DNA from: Nautiliaceae bacterium
Lineage (GTDB): Bacteria; Campylobacterota; Campylobacteria; Campylobacterales; Nautiliaceae
NCBI GenBank assembly: GCA_039831155.1
Contig: JBDONT010000043.1
Span: 192,001 to 256,000, forward strand
Direction: 5' to 3'
Length of the DNA stretch: 64,000 nt
This document shows, piece by piece, positions 7,818 through 14,625 of this stretch; the stretch's first letter is position 1, and each line of letters begins with the position of its first letter. The position numbers and the translations under genes are program-made. The notes beneath the pieces are model-generated. The model searched no databases and was not told the DNA's origin. It worked only from the letters and a program-made list of their open reading frames with translations.

Positions 7818-8213
7818 TTACCTTTTTAGAAGAACTAAATCCTCAACTTTTTTAAATCCGGATTTTTCATAAAAACCTATCATTTCATCTTTACAGTAAA
7901 GCTCGAATGTTTTTACGTTTTTTAGTTCTTTATGATTTAATATTTCATTCATAAGTATTTTAGCATAACCTTTGTTTCTAAAATCCTCTTTAACTATAAC
8001 ATCAAAAATAAAAGCTTTATAAACCCTGTCGCTTAAAACCCTGCTAAAAGCAACAAGTTCATCATTTTCAACAATTCCAAAAACTAAAGTGGTGTTTTGA
8101 AGCATTTTAATAACTTCTTCCTTGCTTCTATTTTTAGTCCACCACTCGTTTTTGTAAAGATTCATTAAATCATCAATGTAATTATCCGCGTTATATACTA
8201 TTTCCATTTCCAC
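7818..8213 (-). CDS. GNAT-family acetyltransferase
   Basis: DVIVKEDFRNKGYA acetyl-CoA motif, FYEKSGF. Confidence 0.88.
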   Translation of the reverse strand: MEMEIVYNADNYIDDLMNLYKNEWWTKNRSKEEVIKMLQNTTLVFGIVENDELVAFSRVLSDRVYKAFIFDVIVKEDFRNKGYAKILMNEILNHKELKNVKTFELYCKDEMIGFYEKSGFKKVEDLVLLKR

Positions 8214-8217
8214 TTTT

Positions 8218-8244
8218 CGCTAAAAAATCCAAAGATTTTTTAGT
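8218..8244 (-). terminator. hairpin after proS
   Basis: ctaaaaaatc-caaa-gattttttag inverted repeat directly after the proS stop. Confidence 0.55.
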
Positions 8245-8247
8245 GTA

Positions 8248-9972
8248 TTATTTGTTTATTAATTCCATAATTTTCTCAAGAGCCATATCTTTATCAACTT
8301 CAAACTTATCACCCGTTTTTCTGTCCCTAATTTCAACTTTACCACTTTTAAGTTTTTTACCCACAATCACCCCAATAGGAAAACCAACAAGCTCAAAATC
8401 TGCAATTTTTGGACCAAATCTTTCACTTCTATCATCAAGAATAGTTTTAACTCCCGCTTTTTTAAGCTCTTCATATAAATTTGTAGCAAAATCTAATTGC
8501 TCTTCTTTTTTAACATCTCCTACAATTATATCAACCACAAAAGGTGCTATCTCTTTTGGCCAAATTATCCCTTTATCATCGTGATTTTGCTCAATTGCCG
8601 CAGCAATAAGTCTTGATACCCCAATTCCATAACATCCCATAATAAAAGGCTTAGCTTTTCCATTCTCATCAAGAAAAGTTGCATTCATAGGTTCAGAGTA
8701 AACCGTACCAAGCTTAAAGATATGTCCAACTTCAATTCCTTTTGTAATTTTTAAAGGCTTCCCACATTTTGGACACAAATCCCCCTCTTTCACAGCTGCA
8801 ATATCTCTATAAATCGTTAAATTCCCAAGTAGATTTGCATCAAGAAGTCCTGCTCCTTTTATATGATAATCTTTTTTATTTGCTCCACAAACTAACTCTT
8901 CTGCCATTCTTAAATCATCATCAATTACATACTTAATATTGCTTGGAAGTCCAAAAGGTCCAATAAATCCAGGCACAAGTCCCACTTTTTCAAGCTCATC
9001 TTCACTTGCATCAACAAGCTCCAAGGCTCCAACTGCATTTTTTGCTTTTGTCTCTTCTAATGTATCAGTTCCCCTTACAAAAAATACAACTATCTCCTCT
9101 TCTCCATTATCATAAATAGCCTTTTTAGCAACAGCTTTAATACTAAAATAAGGGTCAATTCCTAAAAACTCACAAACTTCTTCTATACTCTTTTTATCCG
9201 GAGTATACACTTCTTCGATTATTTCTGTTTTAATTGGATTTTCTCTTTTTTCGTTTTTTCTTTTTGCAACTTCAATATTTGCCGCATAATTACACTCACT
9301 GCAAACTACTATATCATCTTCTCCTGTATCAGCTAAAACCATAAACTCTTTACTACCTTTTCCACCAATAGCACCGCTATCAGCCTCAACTACTCTAAAA
9401 TCAAGCCCCATTCTTTTAAAAATTTCACTATAAGTCTCTTCCATTAAGTTAAATTCTCTATCCAAATCCTCTTTTGTAGCGTGAAAAGAGTAAGCGTCTT
9501 TCATTATAAATTCACGCCCTCTAAGAAGCCCAAATCTCGGTCTTGCTTCATCTCTAAATTTAAGATTTATTTGATATAAATTAACCGGAAGCTGTTTATA
9601 ACTTTTAATAGTCCCTCTTACTAAATCAACTACACTTTCTTCATTTGTAGGTGAAAGTACAAACTTTTGCCCTTTTCTATCTTCAATTCTTAAAAGCTCA
9701 TCACCATATTTTTTAGCCCTTCCTGTCTCTTCCCATAATTCATATGGAGTAACAAAACTTAGCATCACTTCCTGAGCCCCTGCTTTATCCATCTCTTCTT
9801 TAATTATTGCTCTTATATTATCAAGCACCATCTTCCCAAGAGGTGCAAAATCGTATATTCCGGCTGCGACTTGTTTTATATATCCACCTCTAACTAAATA
9901 TTTATGACTCGGCGTTACTGCATCTTTTGGTGCTTCTTTTAATGTATAAGCAAAAAATCTAGACCATCTCAT
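8248..9972 (-). CDS. proS: proline--tRNA ligase
   Basis: FRDEARPRFGLLRGREF, GIEVGHIFKLG, MGCYGIGVSR; ATG at 9972 after AAGGAG. Confidence 0.97.
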   Translation of the reverse strand: MRWSRFFAYTLKEAPKDAVTPSHKYLVRGGYIKQVAAGIYDFAPLGKMVLDNIRAIIKEEMDKAGAQEVMLSFVTPYELWEETGRAKKYGDELLRIEDRKGQKFVLSPTNEESVVDLVRGTIKSYKQLPVNLYQINLKFRDEARPRFGLLRGREFIMKDAYSFHATKEDLDREFNLMEETYSEIFKRMGLDFRVVEADSGAIGGKGSKEFMVLADTGEDDIVVCSECNYAANIEVAKRKNEKRENPIKTEIIEEVYTPDKKSIEEVCEFLGIDPYFSIKAVAKKAIYDNGEEEIVVFFVRGTDTLEETKAKNAVGALELVDASEDELEKVGLVPGFIGPFGLPSNIKYVIDDDLRMAEELVCGANKKDYHIKGAGLLDANLLGNLTIYRDIAAVKEGDLCPKCGKPLKITKGIEVGHIFKLGTVYSEPMNATFLDENGKAKPFIMGCYGIGVSRLIAAAIEQNHDDKGIIWPKEIAPFVVDIIVGDVKKEEQLDFATNLYEELKKAGVKTILDDRSERFGPKIADFELVGFPIGVIVGKKLKSGKVEIRDRKTGDKFEVDKDMALEKIMELINK

Positions 9973-9985
9973 CAAATCTCCTTTA
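9971..9985. repeat. 15-bp direct repeat, left copy (target-site duplication)
   Basis: ATCAAATCTCCTTTA, identical to 13781-13795. Confidence 0.92.
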
Positions 9986-12017
9986 AATTAATTTCTAATT
10001 CATCACTTAAAAATTCTTTATATTCTTCAAAATCATATCCAAAATAATCACAATATGTTTTTAAAACTTCTTTATCTTCAAAGTTTTCTAAAATATTTAC
10101 ATTACCATCATAAACCTCCCTAGATATTTCCTCTGCTTTTTTTGTAAAATCTTCTTTTAAGTCTCTTTTTTTTAAATATAAAATTACAGTAGTTGTGCCT
10201 GTTTTTCCAAATGTGTTTGTTGGAAGCTTTACAATAGCTTTTATTTCAAAATATTTTAATAAAAGCTCTCTTGTTTTAATAAATAAAGCTGAATTTGTCT
10301 TATCTAAAATGGAAATTGGCAAAATTATAGCAGCTAAACCTTTATCTTTTAATATATGTTTCGTTTTTTCAACAAAAAAACACTCTATTGAATTATTAGT
10401 AGAATATTGTTTAACATCTACAAATTTTGAAAGCTCAAATTTTTCTGTATCTTCTTTTTTTAACGTTTCTAAAAACCCTTTAACACTATAAGGAGGATTT
10501 GAAATTAATACTTCAAATTCATCCTTAACTACATCTTTTTTTAAAGCGTCATCATAAATTATCTCAACTTCATTTCCATACATAAATGAACTTACCTTTG
10601 CCACTTTACTTAATCTATACTCTTTTTCAATACCTACTACTTTTGCTTGTTTATGATTTTTTGCAAATTCATTTAAAAAATGCCCCGCCCCACAAGCATA
10701 ATCTATCATAGACTTATACTCTTTTTTAGGAAGAGATGAGACAATAAACTTAACTATCGGCATTGGTGTAAAAAATTGCCCTTCGTTTTGTTTGATACCC
10801 TGGTCTAAAAAGCCCTCAAACAAATCCCCTAAAAATTGATTTTCTTCGGAATTTGTTAGATAAATATCTTGAAAAAGCAAAACAATTTTTCTTAACACCT
10901 CAAAATTTTGATAAAAAAGCTTTTCATTATGAACTTCAATAAAAGCAAAATCGTTTGTAGTAAAAAATTTTAGTTTTTTAATAGCTTCTTTTACTTTTTC
11001 TTTTATCGTTTCAATCTCAAAAGATTTAAAATATTTTTCTATATCTTGATTATCTATATAGGTAATATCTTCATTCAAAAACTCTTTCATACCCTCTTTA
11101 TAAAGCTTTTGTAATCTATCCTGAAACGAAAACGGGTCATCTATTGCAAAACCTCTCCAAAAAAATTGTAAATTATCAGGATTTTCTTTTTCATCTACTA
11201 TTTTACACAACAAAAGATTTACAAGCTTATCAAACGCATTTTCCCTACCACTTACATTATGAGCTCTTAAAACAGTAGCGAATTTATGATAAATTCCACT
11301 TATATCTTCCTCTTTTACAATTTTTAAATCTTTTAAGGAAAAAACACTCTTTTCAAGTTCATAAGCCCTAAATTCATCATCAAAAAGCCCTCTAATACCC
11401 TCTTTTTTATAAACTTCACTCCAAACTTCAAACAAAGCTTTTGCAATATCTCCAAGCTCTCCTTTTCTAGCTTTTTCATAATTTTTCTCTTTATCTAAAT
11501 TTTCCTCAACATCAATAAGCTTTATTAAAAAATATTTATAATCTAAATTTTCATTACTCGTATAAAGACTTATATATTTAGCACCACTATTAGCAGCATA
11601 AGAGAAAATCTGTCCCCCATCAAGTTGAGTTAATTTCAAAGCTTTTTCATATTCAGCTCCCCATGTCTTACATTCAATAATTACTAACGTTTTATCTTCA
11701 TTATCCTTTATAGCAATATCAGCTTTTCCACTTTTATCAAGGTGCCCTAATCTCCATTCCGGTTCAAGTTCAATATGTTTTGGTAAATACCCTTTATTAA
11801 GCAATCTATAAACGCACTCAAACACTACAAAATTTTCCGGTTTTGAAAAATTTGAGGTGGTTAAGTCATTTACTTTCAATTCATTCGGATAAATAAGCTT
11901 TTCATTGTTAAAATCTGCTTTTAACTCAAAATCTCCAAACTTTTTTATAAAAACATTATCTTTTTCTTCAAAATTAAGTTTTCTTAATACATTTTTAAAA
12001 TTTTCTTTTGTTATCAT
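9972..12017 (-). CDS. N-terminal (endonuclease + m6A methyltransferase) half of a type IIG/IIB R-M-S enzyme
   Basis: PD-(D/E)xK-like ADIAI...IIECK, GQFFTP, motif I DYACGAGHF, motif IV NPPY; resembles the Campylobacter Cj1051c N-terminal region (recalled). Confidence 0.88.
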   Translation of the reverse strand: MITKENFKNVLRKLNFEEKDNVFIKKFGDFELKADFNNEKLIYPNELKVNDLTTSNFSKPENFVVFECVYRLLNKGYLPKHIELEPEWRLGHLDKSGKADIAIKDNEDKTLVIIECKTWGAEYEKALKLTQLDGGQIFSYAANSGAKYISLYTSNENLDYKYFLIKLIDVEENLDKEKNYEKARKGELGDIAKALFEVWSEVYKKEGIRGLFDDEFRAYELEKSVFSLKDLKIVKEEDISGIYHKFATVLRAHNVSGRENAFDKLVNLLLCKIVDEKENPDNLQFFWRGFAIDDPFSFQDRLQKLYKEGMKEFLNEDITYIDNQDIEKYFKSFEIETIKEKVKEAIKKLKFFTTNDFAFIEVHNEKLFYQNFEVLRKIVLLFQDIYLTNSEENQFLGDLFEGFLDQGIKQNEGQFFTPMPIVKFIVSSLPKKEYKSMIDYACGAGHFLNEFAKNHKQAKVVGIEKEYRLSKVAKVSSFMYGNEVEIIYDDALKKDVVKDEFEVLISNPPYSVKGFLETLKKEDTEKFELSKFVDVKQYSTNNSIECFFVEKTKHILKDKGLAAIILPISILDKTNSALFIKTRELLLKYFEIKAIVKLPTNTFGKTGTTTVILYLKKRDLKEDFTKKAEEISREVYDGNVNILENFEDKEVLKTYCDYFGYDFEEYKEFLSDELEINLKEI

Positions 12018-12026
12018 TTAAAGCCT

Positions 12027-13781
12027 TTATAAGTATTTCCTTAAAATCTCTTCTTTTTGAGTTTTAGCAGAATTTATAATCTCTTCATTAGCCCTAATTC
12101 TTTTTTCAAGTTTTTCAATCTGTTTTACTATTTCTTGTTGAACTTCAATAGGTGGAAGAGGGATTTTTAGGTTTTCATAAAAATTTATTGGTACTCTTTT
12201 ATGACCACTTGCACCAGTCATAACCTGTTGAGCTTGTTTGCGTATTTGTTCTCTATTTAGAAAATAAAACAAATATCCATTATCCAAATCATTATCTTTT
12301 ACTCTAAAAACATGAAACTCGCTACTTCCAAAAGCTATATTGTTTTTTAAATTTCTAGCAATGGCACATTTTCCATTTTCCATAGAGGGAGTAATTTTTG
12401 CAATAATTATGTCGTTTTCTCTAAAATATGTATAACTTCCCTTTTTTAATTCTTTTAATTTTTTAATATCTTGCTTTTTTATATATCCATTTTCACTAAC
12501 ATATTCCATCGGTATAAAAGAAACTTCTAAATTCTCATCTAAATTAGCTATCTCTTTTTTAGAAGGATTAAATAATACTAAATCTTTTAATAAAACACTT
12601 TTTTCTTTTACATTATTTATTATTTCTTCAATTTCTCTTTTTAATTTAACATTTTCTTCTTTTAACTTTTCAACTTTTTCATCGATTTCACTGCACTCTT
12701 TTACTATATTTTCTTGGATTTTTCTTTCTACTAAAGGTATTTGAATATTCAAATAATCATCCATCTGCAAATTTTTTATATTACTCATACCTGTTTGCAT
12801 ATCAAAAGTAAATCCTTGATTGTAAACATAATCTAAAAGCAAAAACAAAAATTTACTCTTAAATCTATTATTTTTTAGTCTCAGTCTAACCATAAAGTTT
12901 GAAAATGTATATCCCTTCTCTTTTAAATCAAAATACATTACCCTACCAACTGCCTGATGAGAGCTACCACCTGACTTTTCTAAAATAATATCACCCTCTT
13001 TTAACTCCCTATTTCTAAACTGCTTTTCTTCTACTTGCAACCCTTTTACATCTGAAAAATCTATATTATTAGAAGTATCTCCAAAATTGGTATTTCTTAA
13101 AACTTTTGCCTTAATAAAAGGAGGCTTTTTACCTTCCCATAATCCTCCTATTGTATCTACAATATTACCAAGCTTTATATTTTGATATTTTTCGCTTAAT
13201 TTAACTACAACTTTTGGTTTTAACCTAATAACCTTATTAAATTCACTCTCTTTAATATCAAGCATATCGGTTAGATTATAAACTTTTACAAATTTTTGCA
13301 AATCTTCACTAATTCTAAACTCTTTATCTTCTAAAAAGTTCCTGATTATTACGTTTAATTTATTCTCATCATCTAAATTTTTCGGATTATATAGAGGAGT
13401 TTGGATATTGTTTATACTTTTTATATTTTGAAGGGTTCTTTTCTCATCTTCATCAAGTTCTTCTTTAATCTCTACGTTAGAGATATATTTTATTCCCTCA
13501 TTTCCCTTCGCACTACTCCACTCATACCCTAAAAATTTTTTTATCTCATTTGTTTTATTAGGTGAATTTATTACTAATGTTTTTTGATTGTAAGTTAATA
13601 AAAAGTATAAAAATTTTTCTCTTTCTCTCTCTTTTACAAACTTCCTAAACTCTTTATTTTCTATTTTTTCTTGCTCTTCTTTACTTAGTTCTTTATATTT
13701 TTTTCTACTTCTTCTATCTTTTGTAGATTTTAAATTTTCAAATTTTTTTTTATACTCCTTCAACATATCTTTAAAACCCAA
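12027..13781 (-). CDS. C-terminal half of the same enzyme: MTase tail plus HsdS-like specificity region (two TRDs)
   Basis: KKFLGYEWS segment, then two TRDs each ending in a conserved helix (IPLVERKIQENIV; IPLPPIEVQQEIV); TTG start 6 nt after AAGGAG. Confidence 0.88.
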   Translation of the reverse strand: MGFKDMLKEYKKKFENLKSTKDRRSRKKYKELSKEEQEKIENKEFRKFVKEREREKFLYFLLTYNQKTLVINSPNKTNEIKKFLGYEWSSAKGNEGIKYISNVEIKEELDEDEKRTLQNIKSINNIQTPLYNPKNLDDENKLNVIIRNFLEDKEFRISEDLQKFVKVYNLTDMLDIKESEFNKVIRLKPKVVVKLSEKYQNIKLGNIVDTIGGLWEGKKPPFIKAKVLRNTNFGDTSNNIDFSDVKGLQVEEKQFRNRELKEGDIILEKSGGSSHQAVGRVMYFDLKEKGYTFSNFMVRLRLKNNRFKSKFLFLLLDYVYNQGFTFDMQTGMSNIKNLQMDDYLNIQIPLVERKIQENIVKECSEIDEKVEKLKEENVKLKREIEEIINNVKEKSVLLKDLVLFNPSKKEIANLDENLEVSFIPMEYVSENGYIKKQDIKKLKELKKGSYTYFRENDIIIAKITPSMENGKCAIARNLKNNIAFGSSEFHVFRVKDNDLDNGYLFYFLNREQIRKQAQQVMTGASGHKRVPINFYENLKIPLPPIEVQQEIVKQIEKLEKRIRANEEIINSAKTQKEEILRKYL

Positions 13782-13795
13782 TCAAATCTCCTTTA
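13781..13795. repeat. 15-bp direct repeat, right copy
   Basis: ATCAAATCTCCTTTA; on minus includes the end of the S4-domain gene (AAG GAG ATT TGA). Confidence 0.92.
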
Positions 13796-14033
13796 CGTAT
13801 TCTGTTTTTCTACTCTTTGGAATAGTCTTAGTCTCCGGTATTCGCAATACTTCGTATTTTTTAACGCCGCTTAAATAGTGAATTTCTATTATATCACCTA
13901 CTTTTACATCTTTAGCCGGTTTTGCTTTTTTTCCATTTATAAAAACAACGCCCTCTTTACACATCTCATCGGCTATTGAGCGTCTTTTTACGATATTAAC
14001 CGCATTTAAAAACTTATCTATCCTCAAACTCAT
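13782..14033 (-). CDS. S4-domain RNA-binding protein (YabO/RqcP/Hsp15-like)
   Basis: LRIDKFL...KRRSIA...INGKKAKPAKDVKVGD. Confidence 0.88.
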   Translation of the reverse strand: MSLRIDKFLNAVNIVKRRSIADEMCKEGVVFINGKKAKPAKDVKVGDIIEIHYLSGVKKYEVLRIPETKTIPKSRKTEYVKEI

Positions 14034-14044
14034 CCTTTTTTAGA

Positions 14045-14068
14045 AATTATATCAAATTTGATATAATT
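14045..14068. promoter_or_regulatory. perfect 24-bp palindrome comprising two back-to-back extended -10 boxes
   Basis: AATTATATCAAATTTGATATAATT; TGATATAAT on both strands between divergent genes. Confidence 0.75.
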
Positions 14069-14085
14069 AAATAGAAAGGTTTTTT

Positions 14086-14625
14086 ATGTGTGCAATTGAA
14101 TATTACACTTATGAGGATTATAAAAAGTGGGAGGGGGATTGGGAGTTAATTGATGGTATCCCTCTTGCAATGGCACCAGCACATCTTCCTACTCATCAAT
14201 TTATAACATTTCAAATATCACATCAACTAAACTCTCAATTAGAAGAGTATTTAGAGTGTGCAGTTTTAGGAGAAGTTGACTATAAAATAGATGAAGAGAA
14301 TGTCCTAAGACCAGATTTAGTTTTAACTTGCGAAAAATTAAATAAACCTTACCTGTCACTTGCACCAGAAATAGTATTTGAAATAGTTTCCCCATCAACT
14401 GCTAGAAGAGATGAAAAGTTTAAATTTGAATTATATGAAAAAGAAAAAGTTAAATATTATGTTTTGGTATACCCAAACGATAAAAAAGCAAAAGTTTATA
14501 AACTCAATAACTCCAAATATGAAAAAGAGGGAGACATCATAACAAAGTATGAATTTAAAGAAACAAAGTGTAAAGTTAGTGTAGATTTTGAGAAAATCTT
14601 TAAAAGACTTAGTATAATTACATAA
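14086..14625 (+). CDS. Uma2/DUF820-family PD-(D/E)xK nuclease-like protein
   Basis: [29 protein letters not shown]...V.YY. Confidence 0.88.

Follow-up and report, generated by a model that had tools for sequence, protein, structure and literature searches.

How does a gene come to be read as two genes in swapped order, with none of its sequence lost? This question is raised by a locus on contig JBDONT010000043.1 of a Nautiliaceae bacterium, of which a stretch of 64,000 nt (192,001 to 256,000, forward strand) was analysed. This stretch is called the window, and all positions are window-based. On the minus strand, the gene of a small S4-domain RNA-binding protein is followed by one copy of a 15-bp repeat, an open reading frame (ORF) for the C-terminal half of a restriction-modification (R-M) enzyme, 9 nt, an ORF for the N-terminal half of this enzyme, the second copy of the repeat, and proS. 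The two ORFs are termed C-half and N-half. The reading that we prefer, with a probability of about 70%, is that a single-chain gene combining restriction, modification and specificity parts (R-M-S) was inserted as an opened one-gene circle and became split and permuted at a duplicated 15-bp target. The features of the locus, given with their lengths in nucleotides or amino acids (aa), are:

8248..9972, minus strand: proS (prolyl-tRNA synthetase), ATG at 9972..9970 with a one-base overlap with the N-half stop
9971..9985, minus strand: right copy of the 15-bp target duplication, with the end and stop of the N-half, the AAGGAG for proS, and the "AT" of the proS ATG
9972..12017, minus strand: N-half ORF, 681 aa, ATG start
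9986..13780, minus strand: the inserted element proper, 3795 bp, one gene plus the 9-nt spacer
12018..12026, minus strand: spacer AGGCTTTAA, 9 nt, from the C-half stop (TAA) to the N-half ATG
12027..13781, minus strand: C-half ORF, 584 aa, TTG start
13781..13795, minus strand: left copy of the 15-bp target duplication, with the final S4-gene codons and their TGA, AAGGAG, and the T that opens the C-half TTG
13782..14033, minus strand: S4-domain RNA-binding protein gene, 83 aa, at the head of the gene run, its C-terminal VKEI* inside the left repeat copy

The S4 gene (Pfam S4, E 3.4e-11) is present in 37 of 41 related genomes. The element is foreign in composition, having a GC content of 26.1% compared with 32.1% for the window.

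The repeat and the signals it carries

The repeat unit TAAAGGAGATTTGAT, read on the minus strand, occurs exactly twice in the window (13795..13781 and 9985..9971), and a third match was not found there even if 1 mismatch was allowed. The chance expectation is 0.07, and none of 100 shuffled sequences contained two or more matches. The flanking bases differ outside both copies, so that the repeat is exactly 15 bp long.

The left junction reads gta aag gag att tga ttg ggt ttt. The S4 gene stops at 13784..13782, and its AAGGAG (13793..13788) is followed by 6 nt (ATTTGA) and a TTG (13781..13779), whose T is the final base of the repeat and which is in frame with the C-half. This TTG is kept in a third lineage, whose protein P0126 begins with LSFKDI and does not have Met at codon 6, and reads TTA in a decayed copy. 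The right junction reads ...gaa att aat tta aag gag att tga tg, and the N-half frame ends with ...EINLKEI*. The codon for Leu-678 takes its first base from the element and the remainder from the right copy, from which K, E, I and the stop (9974..9972) follow. The same copy holds the AAGGAG of proS (9983..9978), 5 nt ahead of the ATG. Because the target itself is an overlap of stop, ribosome site and start, the left copy provides the C-half with AAGGAG and a TTG, and the right copy closes the N-half with KEI*.

A duplicated target and an exact break

Sixteen related loci, including this window, have a readable end of the S4 gene. The motif is single in nine of them, where it forms the S4 stop overlapping the proS ATG, one has a short spacer, and six carry an insert. 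The empty site is also seen in contigs from two RNA-library runs of one sample, in which a joint 9970->13781 skips 3810 bases at 15 shared letters. One empty-site contig belongs to a co-occurring relative (9810-9970, 13781-13981) and is a mosaic with its boundary at the junction: its proS side shows 0 differences, whereas 18 in 201 positions differ on its S4 side. A DNA run contained a joint that goes back (13544->10189), as expected from a fused, unpermuted relative.

The longer relatives of the N-half among the matches listed (n=120) are all 1206-1302 aa long and all contain both domain kinds. The closest ones (68-72% identity) are all single-chain, and the best one listed, P0005, is 72% identical over 99% of the N-half query. 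The N-half aligns to residues 1-678 of P0005 and the C-half from 687 to the end, which identifies the upstream ORF as the C-terminal half and the downstream ORF as the N-terminal half.

Where the gene was broken can be read from the number of residues between two invariant tyrosines, Y666 of the N-half and Y10 of the C-half, in 46 single-chain relatives. This spacing is 20 residues in 44 of them; the other two have 21 and 28. In the N-half, 11 element-encoded residues lie past Y666 (to ...ELEIN), and in the C-half nine lie before Y10 (LGFKDMLKE), which also sums up to 20. In the rejoined frame, the codon for the L of the C-half combines the element base preceding the right copy with the two that follow the left copy. 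Joining 12017..9986 and 13780..12027 in silico, with one copy removed, yields 1261 codons without internal stops, and this frame aligns from 1-1261 to 1-1245 of P0005 in a single BLASTP piece. Because the rejoined frame is stop-free and the spacing at the break is identical to that of 44 of the 46 relatives, the repeat is, judged by these sequence comparisons, a true target duplication without loss of gene sequence. Microhomology at the break is limited to one base (T) common at each junction. A Campbell-type integration via a 15-bp copy inside the gene was also considered and discarded; it would add five codons (KEI, stop) to the ancestral frame.

A first-pass annotation of this DNA had described the repeat and junction anatomy in much the same way, and every element of it was found. 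The in-frame LKEI* at the right copy and, at the left copy, the AAGGAG with the first T of an in-frame TTG 6 nt further on are read directly at the junctions. The ribosome site that proS was said to retain is the AAGGAG in the right copy. Both halves are stop-free as claimed and have kept the motifs named there (ADI..ECK, DYACGAG, NPPY, and two target-recognition domains (TRDs)). That the repeat is a duplicated target agrees with the single copy in the empty sites of relatives, and the proposed single-chain ancestor agrees with the lengths of the relatives, the exact spacing at the break and the stop-free rejoined frame.

What the two halves encode

The N-half comprises a PD-(D/E)xK nuclease, a helical connector, a gamma-type N6-adenine methyltransferase with motifs I and IV (Pfam N6_Mtase, E 7.3e-31), and the first part of a knob. 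Its GKADI...IIECK, DYACGAGHF and NPPY stand at columns invariant in 52 aligned relatives (D100, E115, K117, N507-Y510), and it retains every column that is invariant among these relatives. The C-half contains two Methylase_S stretches. From its N-terminus onwards it carries the second portion of the knob helices, a strand (67-71) and a linker module that extends to about residue 190, followed by an HsdS-like TRD1-CR1-TRD2-CR2 part. Its model has helices at 2-15, 18-25, 27-30 and 34-64 and long helices at 353-389 and 545-583, and about 120 residues lie between the strand and TRD1. In a Foldseek search the whole C-half model matched HsdS (1yf2_A, E 3.6e-17) and S.BsaXI (8w0p_C, E 6.4e-14); HsdS chains dominated this search, and it gave no separate match for residues 1-190. 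A sequence search with C-half residues 1-200 against solved structures resulted in chance-level matches only (E 0.6 or worse).

The domain description given in part of PMC11997821 places the methyltransferase of RM.BsaXI (916 aa) at 363-625, followed by a multi-helical knob (626-742) between strands b18/b19 and then by a paddle. N-half residues 483-623 align to 498-626 of the 916 residues of RM.BsaXI (8w0p_A, E 4.1e-25), and the N-half runs 58 residues past the equivalent of BsaXI-626. The cut thus appears to fall inside the knob equivalent, and the C-half would supply the strand that returns to the methyltransferase sheet; this assignment combines the N-half alignment, the domain limits of that paper and the complex model, and the knob equivalence is deduced, not aligned. 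Because the cut would lie inside the knob, with a methyltransferase strand on the C-half, methylation and cutting should both need both chains.

Residues 380-681 of the N-half together with the whole C-half were modelled as a 1:1 pair of 886 residues. The score was 0.87, compared with 0.00 for the best of three controls; this mark is reached by 116 of 157 solved complexes and by 2 of 215 mismatched pairs. The contact agreement between the runs was at least 88%, and the partner pLDDT at least 83. In the model, C-half residues 68-71 pair with N-half residues 592-597, and C-half residues 1-190 contact N-half residues 418-431 and 591-602. A complex prediction had been proposed in the first-pass annotation as a check. 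It separates the pair clearly from the controls, but a pass is expected for the halves of one protein that in addition resembles the solved BsaXI. The score therefore speaks for continuity of the predicted fold, not for binding in the cell.

Distribution of relatives and other splits

Among 30 genomes of the family, matches were found only in this genome (G000) and, as one fused copy, in G010. Of 401 genomes of the order, 38 have a match, and 24 of the 41 places are in open frames of at least 1200 aa. Except for the locus described here, none of the 41 places ends stop-free at the break. Similarly, none of the 67 loci with an NPPYS frame, out of 80 GTDB loci, has a stop 150-200 aa after NPPY. 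The frames of L052 and L053, from metagenome-assembled genomes (MAGs) titled Candidatus Gracilibacteria, 'stop' 7 residues past NPPY in table 11, which would be expected if TGA is a sense codon in that group. The genome studied here also has a second, unsplit family member (C35:66150-68156, L028), with an open frame of 1232 aa that is 41% identical to the N-half.

Other proteins end or begin close to the break. Five RM-only relatives (P0214, P0228, P0229, P0236 and P0248), 680-690 aa long and about 52% identical, stop within 1-2 residues of it and end with ...EYEEI or ...KYETI. The S-like proteins P0148, P0183 and P0182 (539-574 aa) begin just past the same break. These could be independent splits at the same spot, as far as the protein sequences tell. 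In a GTDB scan with P0228 the nearest locus (L030, 95% identity) continues past the stop of P0228, its frame being broken elsewhere on a short contig.

Short direct repeats around fused relatives are not generally enriched; they were found at 1 of 41 genes (L039, 13 bp), while 3 of 2000 mismatched controls had a flanking repeat of at least 13 bp. L039, in a MAG titled Sulfurimonas crateris, is a fused relative of 1260 aa with the 13-bp direct repeat AAATAAAAAAGGT on both sides, which spans the stop/ribosome-site region ahead of the ATG of this gene and of that of the next gene. Its sequence suggests that L039 was inserted in phase and that a short target was duplicated in the process.

Sister copies and selection after the split

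G005, from a sister species in the same genus, and the independent metagenome contig L029 share the left and right junctions of the window at the same site. Their pieces of the element are 87-95% identical to the window, compared with 86% for the S4 gene and 91% for proS. When metagenomes were scanned with the C-half, only L029 was found, a decayed locus like that in G005. The spacer between the C-half stop and the N-half start is spanned by a DNA-run contig that does not differ from the window. Because the junctions recur in G005 and L029 and the spacer is bridged, the arrangement is not an assembly artefact. A third lineage is known from the proteins P0126 and P0206 only (the longest contig listed is 10,052 bp). 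P0126 starts with LSFKD... and is 92% identical to the C-half; P0206 ends with ...ISLKEI and is 92-94% identical to the N-half.

The decayed copy has about 80 extra bases from the N-half end to proS (L029 6574-6652, the same in L021). They begin with a possible 25-codon ORF, and a worn third copy of the signal (AAAAAGGAGATTTTATG) delimits them. These bases may be left over from another insertion here.

Since the window and the G005-like remnant share both junctions, the differences between them postdate the event. Over 241 codons the rate of synonymous changes (dS) is 0.243 and that of nonsynonymous changes (dN) is 0.064, which gives a ratio of 0.26 (about 0.25 for the C pieces and 0.31 for the N pieces; controls: proS 0.077, S4 gene 0.024). 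The synonymous excess is significant overall (Fisher p 4e-6) and for the C pieces (4e-5) and N pieces (0.008) alone. A change of 3% per site left both ORFs without stops in 2 of 2000 neutral simulations, and one of 6%, 12% or 20% in 0 of 2000; insertions and deletions are ignored in these simulations. Both halves have been under purifying selection after the split, as shown on pieces of both; relaxed selection on the two halves, which the first-pass annotation had named as a refuting outcome, is not what was found.

Zero-difference contigs from two RNA-library runs (one sample) cover parts of both halves and, DNA carry-over being possible, are weak support for expression. Inside the insert no terminator-like sites were found on the minus strand, and promoter-like sites are at chance level (26 in 8000..14300 compared with 28.6 in shuffles). 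Presumably, both chains are made and reassemble, with the second knob part and one strand of the methyltransferase contributed in trans by the C-half, and methylation and cutting by the enzyme would persist in this genome.

How the arrangement may have arisen

According to the reading that we prefer, a single-chain, Type IIB-like R-M-S gene with the domain order nuclease, connector, N6-adenine methyltransferase, knob and two TRDs would have entered exactly at the overlap of the S4 stop and the proS start. The incoming DNA would have behaved as a 3795-bp circle carrying one gene only, which was opened inside this gene, in the stretch coding for the knob, while 15 bp of the target became duplicated. 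Opening a circle once would leave one gene in a phase-shifted copy of unit length, as seen here, which is why the sequence suggests a circular intermediate. The 9-nt spacer AGGCTTTAA would then hold the closure point of the circle. The left copy would have set AAGGAG and a new TTG before the C-half, and the right copy would have closed the N-half with KEI* while preserving the ribosome site of proS and, upstream, a frame ending on the proS ATG.

Several observations weigh against such an origin of a stable new system. Two of the three lineages with the permuted arrangement are decayed. In G005 and L029 the insert is reduced to about 0.75 kb; its five pieces, three from the C-half followed by two from the N-half, are collinear and separated by four deletions. 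In the third lineage, P0126 stops after 335 aa, and P0206 has a 23-aa in-frame internal duplication at motif I, which repeats ...QSMIDYACGAG... beside the S-adenosylmethionine-binding motif. The 241 codons compared do not include any of the nuclease domain, and one of the two copies is a pseudogene; in addition, the dS of the remnant (0.24) is below that of proS (0.43), so that the timing is uncertain. The alignments behind the complex score were built from fused relatives, so that within-chain covariation feeds it. The RNA-library contigs cannot show translation starts or levels. The match of the nuclease to Pfam HSDR_N_2 (E 2.5e-05, 24.8 bits) is just below the cut-off of 25. The cut would sit within a folded element rather than a free linker, which could cripple folding. 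Finally, the element does not contain a recombinase or transposase that could have made a 15-bp staggered duplication. Alternatively, the insertion may have killed the enzyme, and the two ORFs would be relics whose frames have not yet closed owing to a recent event or a recent loss of function. This would account for the decay in two of three lineages and for a break inside the knob and the methyltransferase fold. However, the ratio of 0.26 was obtained between copies that already share the permuted junctions, both ORFs survive neutral change so rarely in the simulations (2 of 2000 at 3%, 0 of 2000 at 6% or more), and the N-half keeps all columns invariant in 52 aligned relatives. Dead relics are therefore rather unlikely.

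A quite improbable origin is a duplication followed by deletions, a route to permutation that Jeltsch is said to have proposed in 1999. Unequal exchange between the copies flanking a gene inserted in phase would have produced a tandem duplicate, from which the first N and the second C part would then have been lost. In-phase insertions with such duplications do exist at this site in relatives, and the spacer between the C-half stop and the N-half start, TAAAGGCTTTAAATG, loosely resembles the target plus ATG. However, the likeness extends over about 12 of 16 positions (stop, AGG, ATG), which is not above what such signals give. Moreover, two independent deletions would be needed, with their inner ends at the same base and their outer ends each leaving an intact 15-bp copy, and the break is exact to the base. 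It is scarcely credible that the locus is a native system of S and RM genes that was never fused, from which the single-chain form is derived and in which the repeat represents two similar ribosome sites. Two-subunit Type IIB enzymes such as BsaXI do exist, as described in parts of PMC9159934 and PMC11997821, and RM-only (680-690 aa) and S-like relatives (539-574 aa, starting near the break) are recorded. But the two copies are identical in 15 of 15 positions, spacer included, and match the empty site of relatives, the last codons of the N-half are those of the S4 gene, removal of the repeat restores the exact spacing of 44 of 46 single-chain relatives, and the closest relatives (68-72% identity) are all single-chain.

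The S4/proS overlap as an insertion site

Inserts between the S4 gene and proS are also found in four other genomes:

G020 (L023 279-930): small ORF and PIN_2 toxin (E 4.2e-27)
G013 (L024 5030-5566): small ORF and RelE/ParE toxin (E 4.5e-10)
G021 (L025 252-620): 344-nt stretch
G001 (L022 2340-10061): RadC and a Type I R-M system (HsdM, E 4.7e-121, and HsdR)

Each of them lies between near-identical copies of the AAGGAG-spacer-stop/start signal, and the spacer of the signal co-varies within each genome (e.g. CTTTG/CTTTG in G013). In G020 and G013, but not in G001, the final inserted ORF ends in the duplicated tail (LKEL* and KKEL*), like the N-half here. An upstream frame that ends on the proS ATG may be what selection keeps.

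Taken together, the S4/proS overlap could be a recurrent landing site for promoterless addiction-type modules, namely PIN and RelE toxin-antitoxin pairs, the Type I R-M system and the R-M-S gene, each hard-wired into the translation of an essential gene via a signal of about 15 bp. Having been excised at the flanking copies of an earlier in-phase insertion, the R-M-S gene would have travelled as a circle of one gene and re-entered out of phase; the spacer between the C-half stop and the N-half start would then look like a worn target copy. As a whole, this wider scenario is speculative and on balance doubtful.

Comparison with known systems

Single-chain R-M-S Type IIB enzymes are those of the AloI/CjeI/PpiI/TstI type. 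They have the same domain order as the rejoined frame, whose 1261 aa fall within the 1206-1302 aa of its relatives, and nuclease, methyltransferase and TRD1-CR1-TRD2-CR2 are all found here. However, they are one polypeptide, and here there are two ORFs in reversed order, which form one frame only after the in-silico removal. Named, characterised enzymes are not among the matches to the single-chain family. Both RM + S and RMS forms of Type IIB enzymes are described in parts of PMC9159934 and PMC11997821, and the single-chain enzymes of the 'RMS fusion group' modelled there, in the relevant part of PMC11997821, all have the knob.

The first-pass annotation had likened the locus to a BcgI-like RM + S organisation. 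This holds in so far as there are two polypeptides, one of RM type and one with two TRDs; as in the (RM)2S enzymes BsaXI and BcgI, nuclease and methyltransferase are on one chain and both TRDs on the other. It does not hold for the position of the cut. In BsaXI and BcgI the RM chain has the complete methyltransferase fold and the knob, which in the part of PMC11997821 describing BsaXI form a whole on the RM subunit, whereas here the cut would fall inside the knob and a methyltransferase strand would be on the C-half. The S subunit of these enzymes consists of TRD-CR only, as also described in that part for BsaXI, whereas the C-half has about 190 residues before TRD1, which in the model dock on the methyltransferase. 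In addition, the S-like half comes first in the gene order here.

Insertion of R-M genes with long target duplication was reportedly described by Nobusato in 2000. As in that type, the repeats flanking the element are single in the empty site and a mobility gene is absent. For competent epsilon-proteobacteria, Furuta et al. 2010 describe R-M inserts without a mobility gene whose direct repeats are single in the empty site (PMC2853133, in part). In the portion of PMC2853133 concerned, repeats are defined as longer than 30 bp and the inserts carry whole genes, gene fusion during such insertion being noted. Here, the repeat has 15 bp, and one gene would have entered out of phase and so been split and permuted.

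DNA methyltransferases have reportedly been circularly permuted through duplication or through fission and fusion (Jeltsch 1999 and Bujnicki 2002, both cited in PMC2853133). In these, the parts of an R-M protein gene are likewise rearranged in order. However, they were deduced from the order of motifs in distant families and are single permuted chains, whereas here there are two chains and the event is recent enough for each base to be followed. Among the papers listed in literature searches, none described an R-M gene naturally split and permuted through target duplication.

Thus, fused (RMS) and split (RM + S) Type IIB forms and permuted methyltransferases have been known only as end states. 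Here, one event would be readable, in which a gene was cut without loss, its parts were swapped, and a 15-bp duplication carries the signals for both parts and for an essential gene. This offers a concrete, testable route for gene fission and permutation, and a natural split point inside a Type IIB knob that could be tried in engineering. If the wider scenario of the landing site were true, the halves would be a natural, still-selected pair of protein fragments, and fission and permutation of an R-M gene would have had a one-step origin. The case also suggests that gene overlaps inside operons may serve as landing sites at which selfish modules, of the defence or the toxin-antitoxin kind, become hard to lose.

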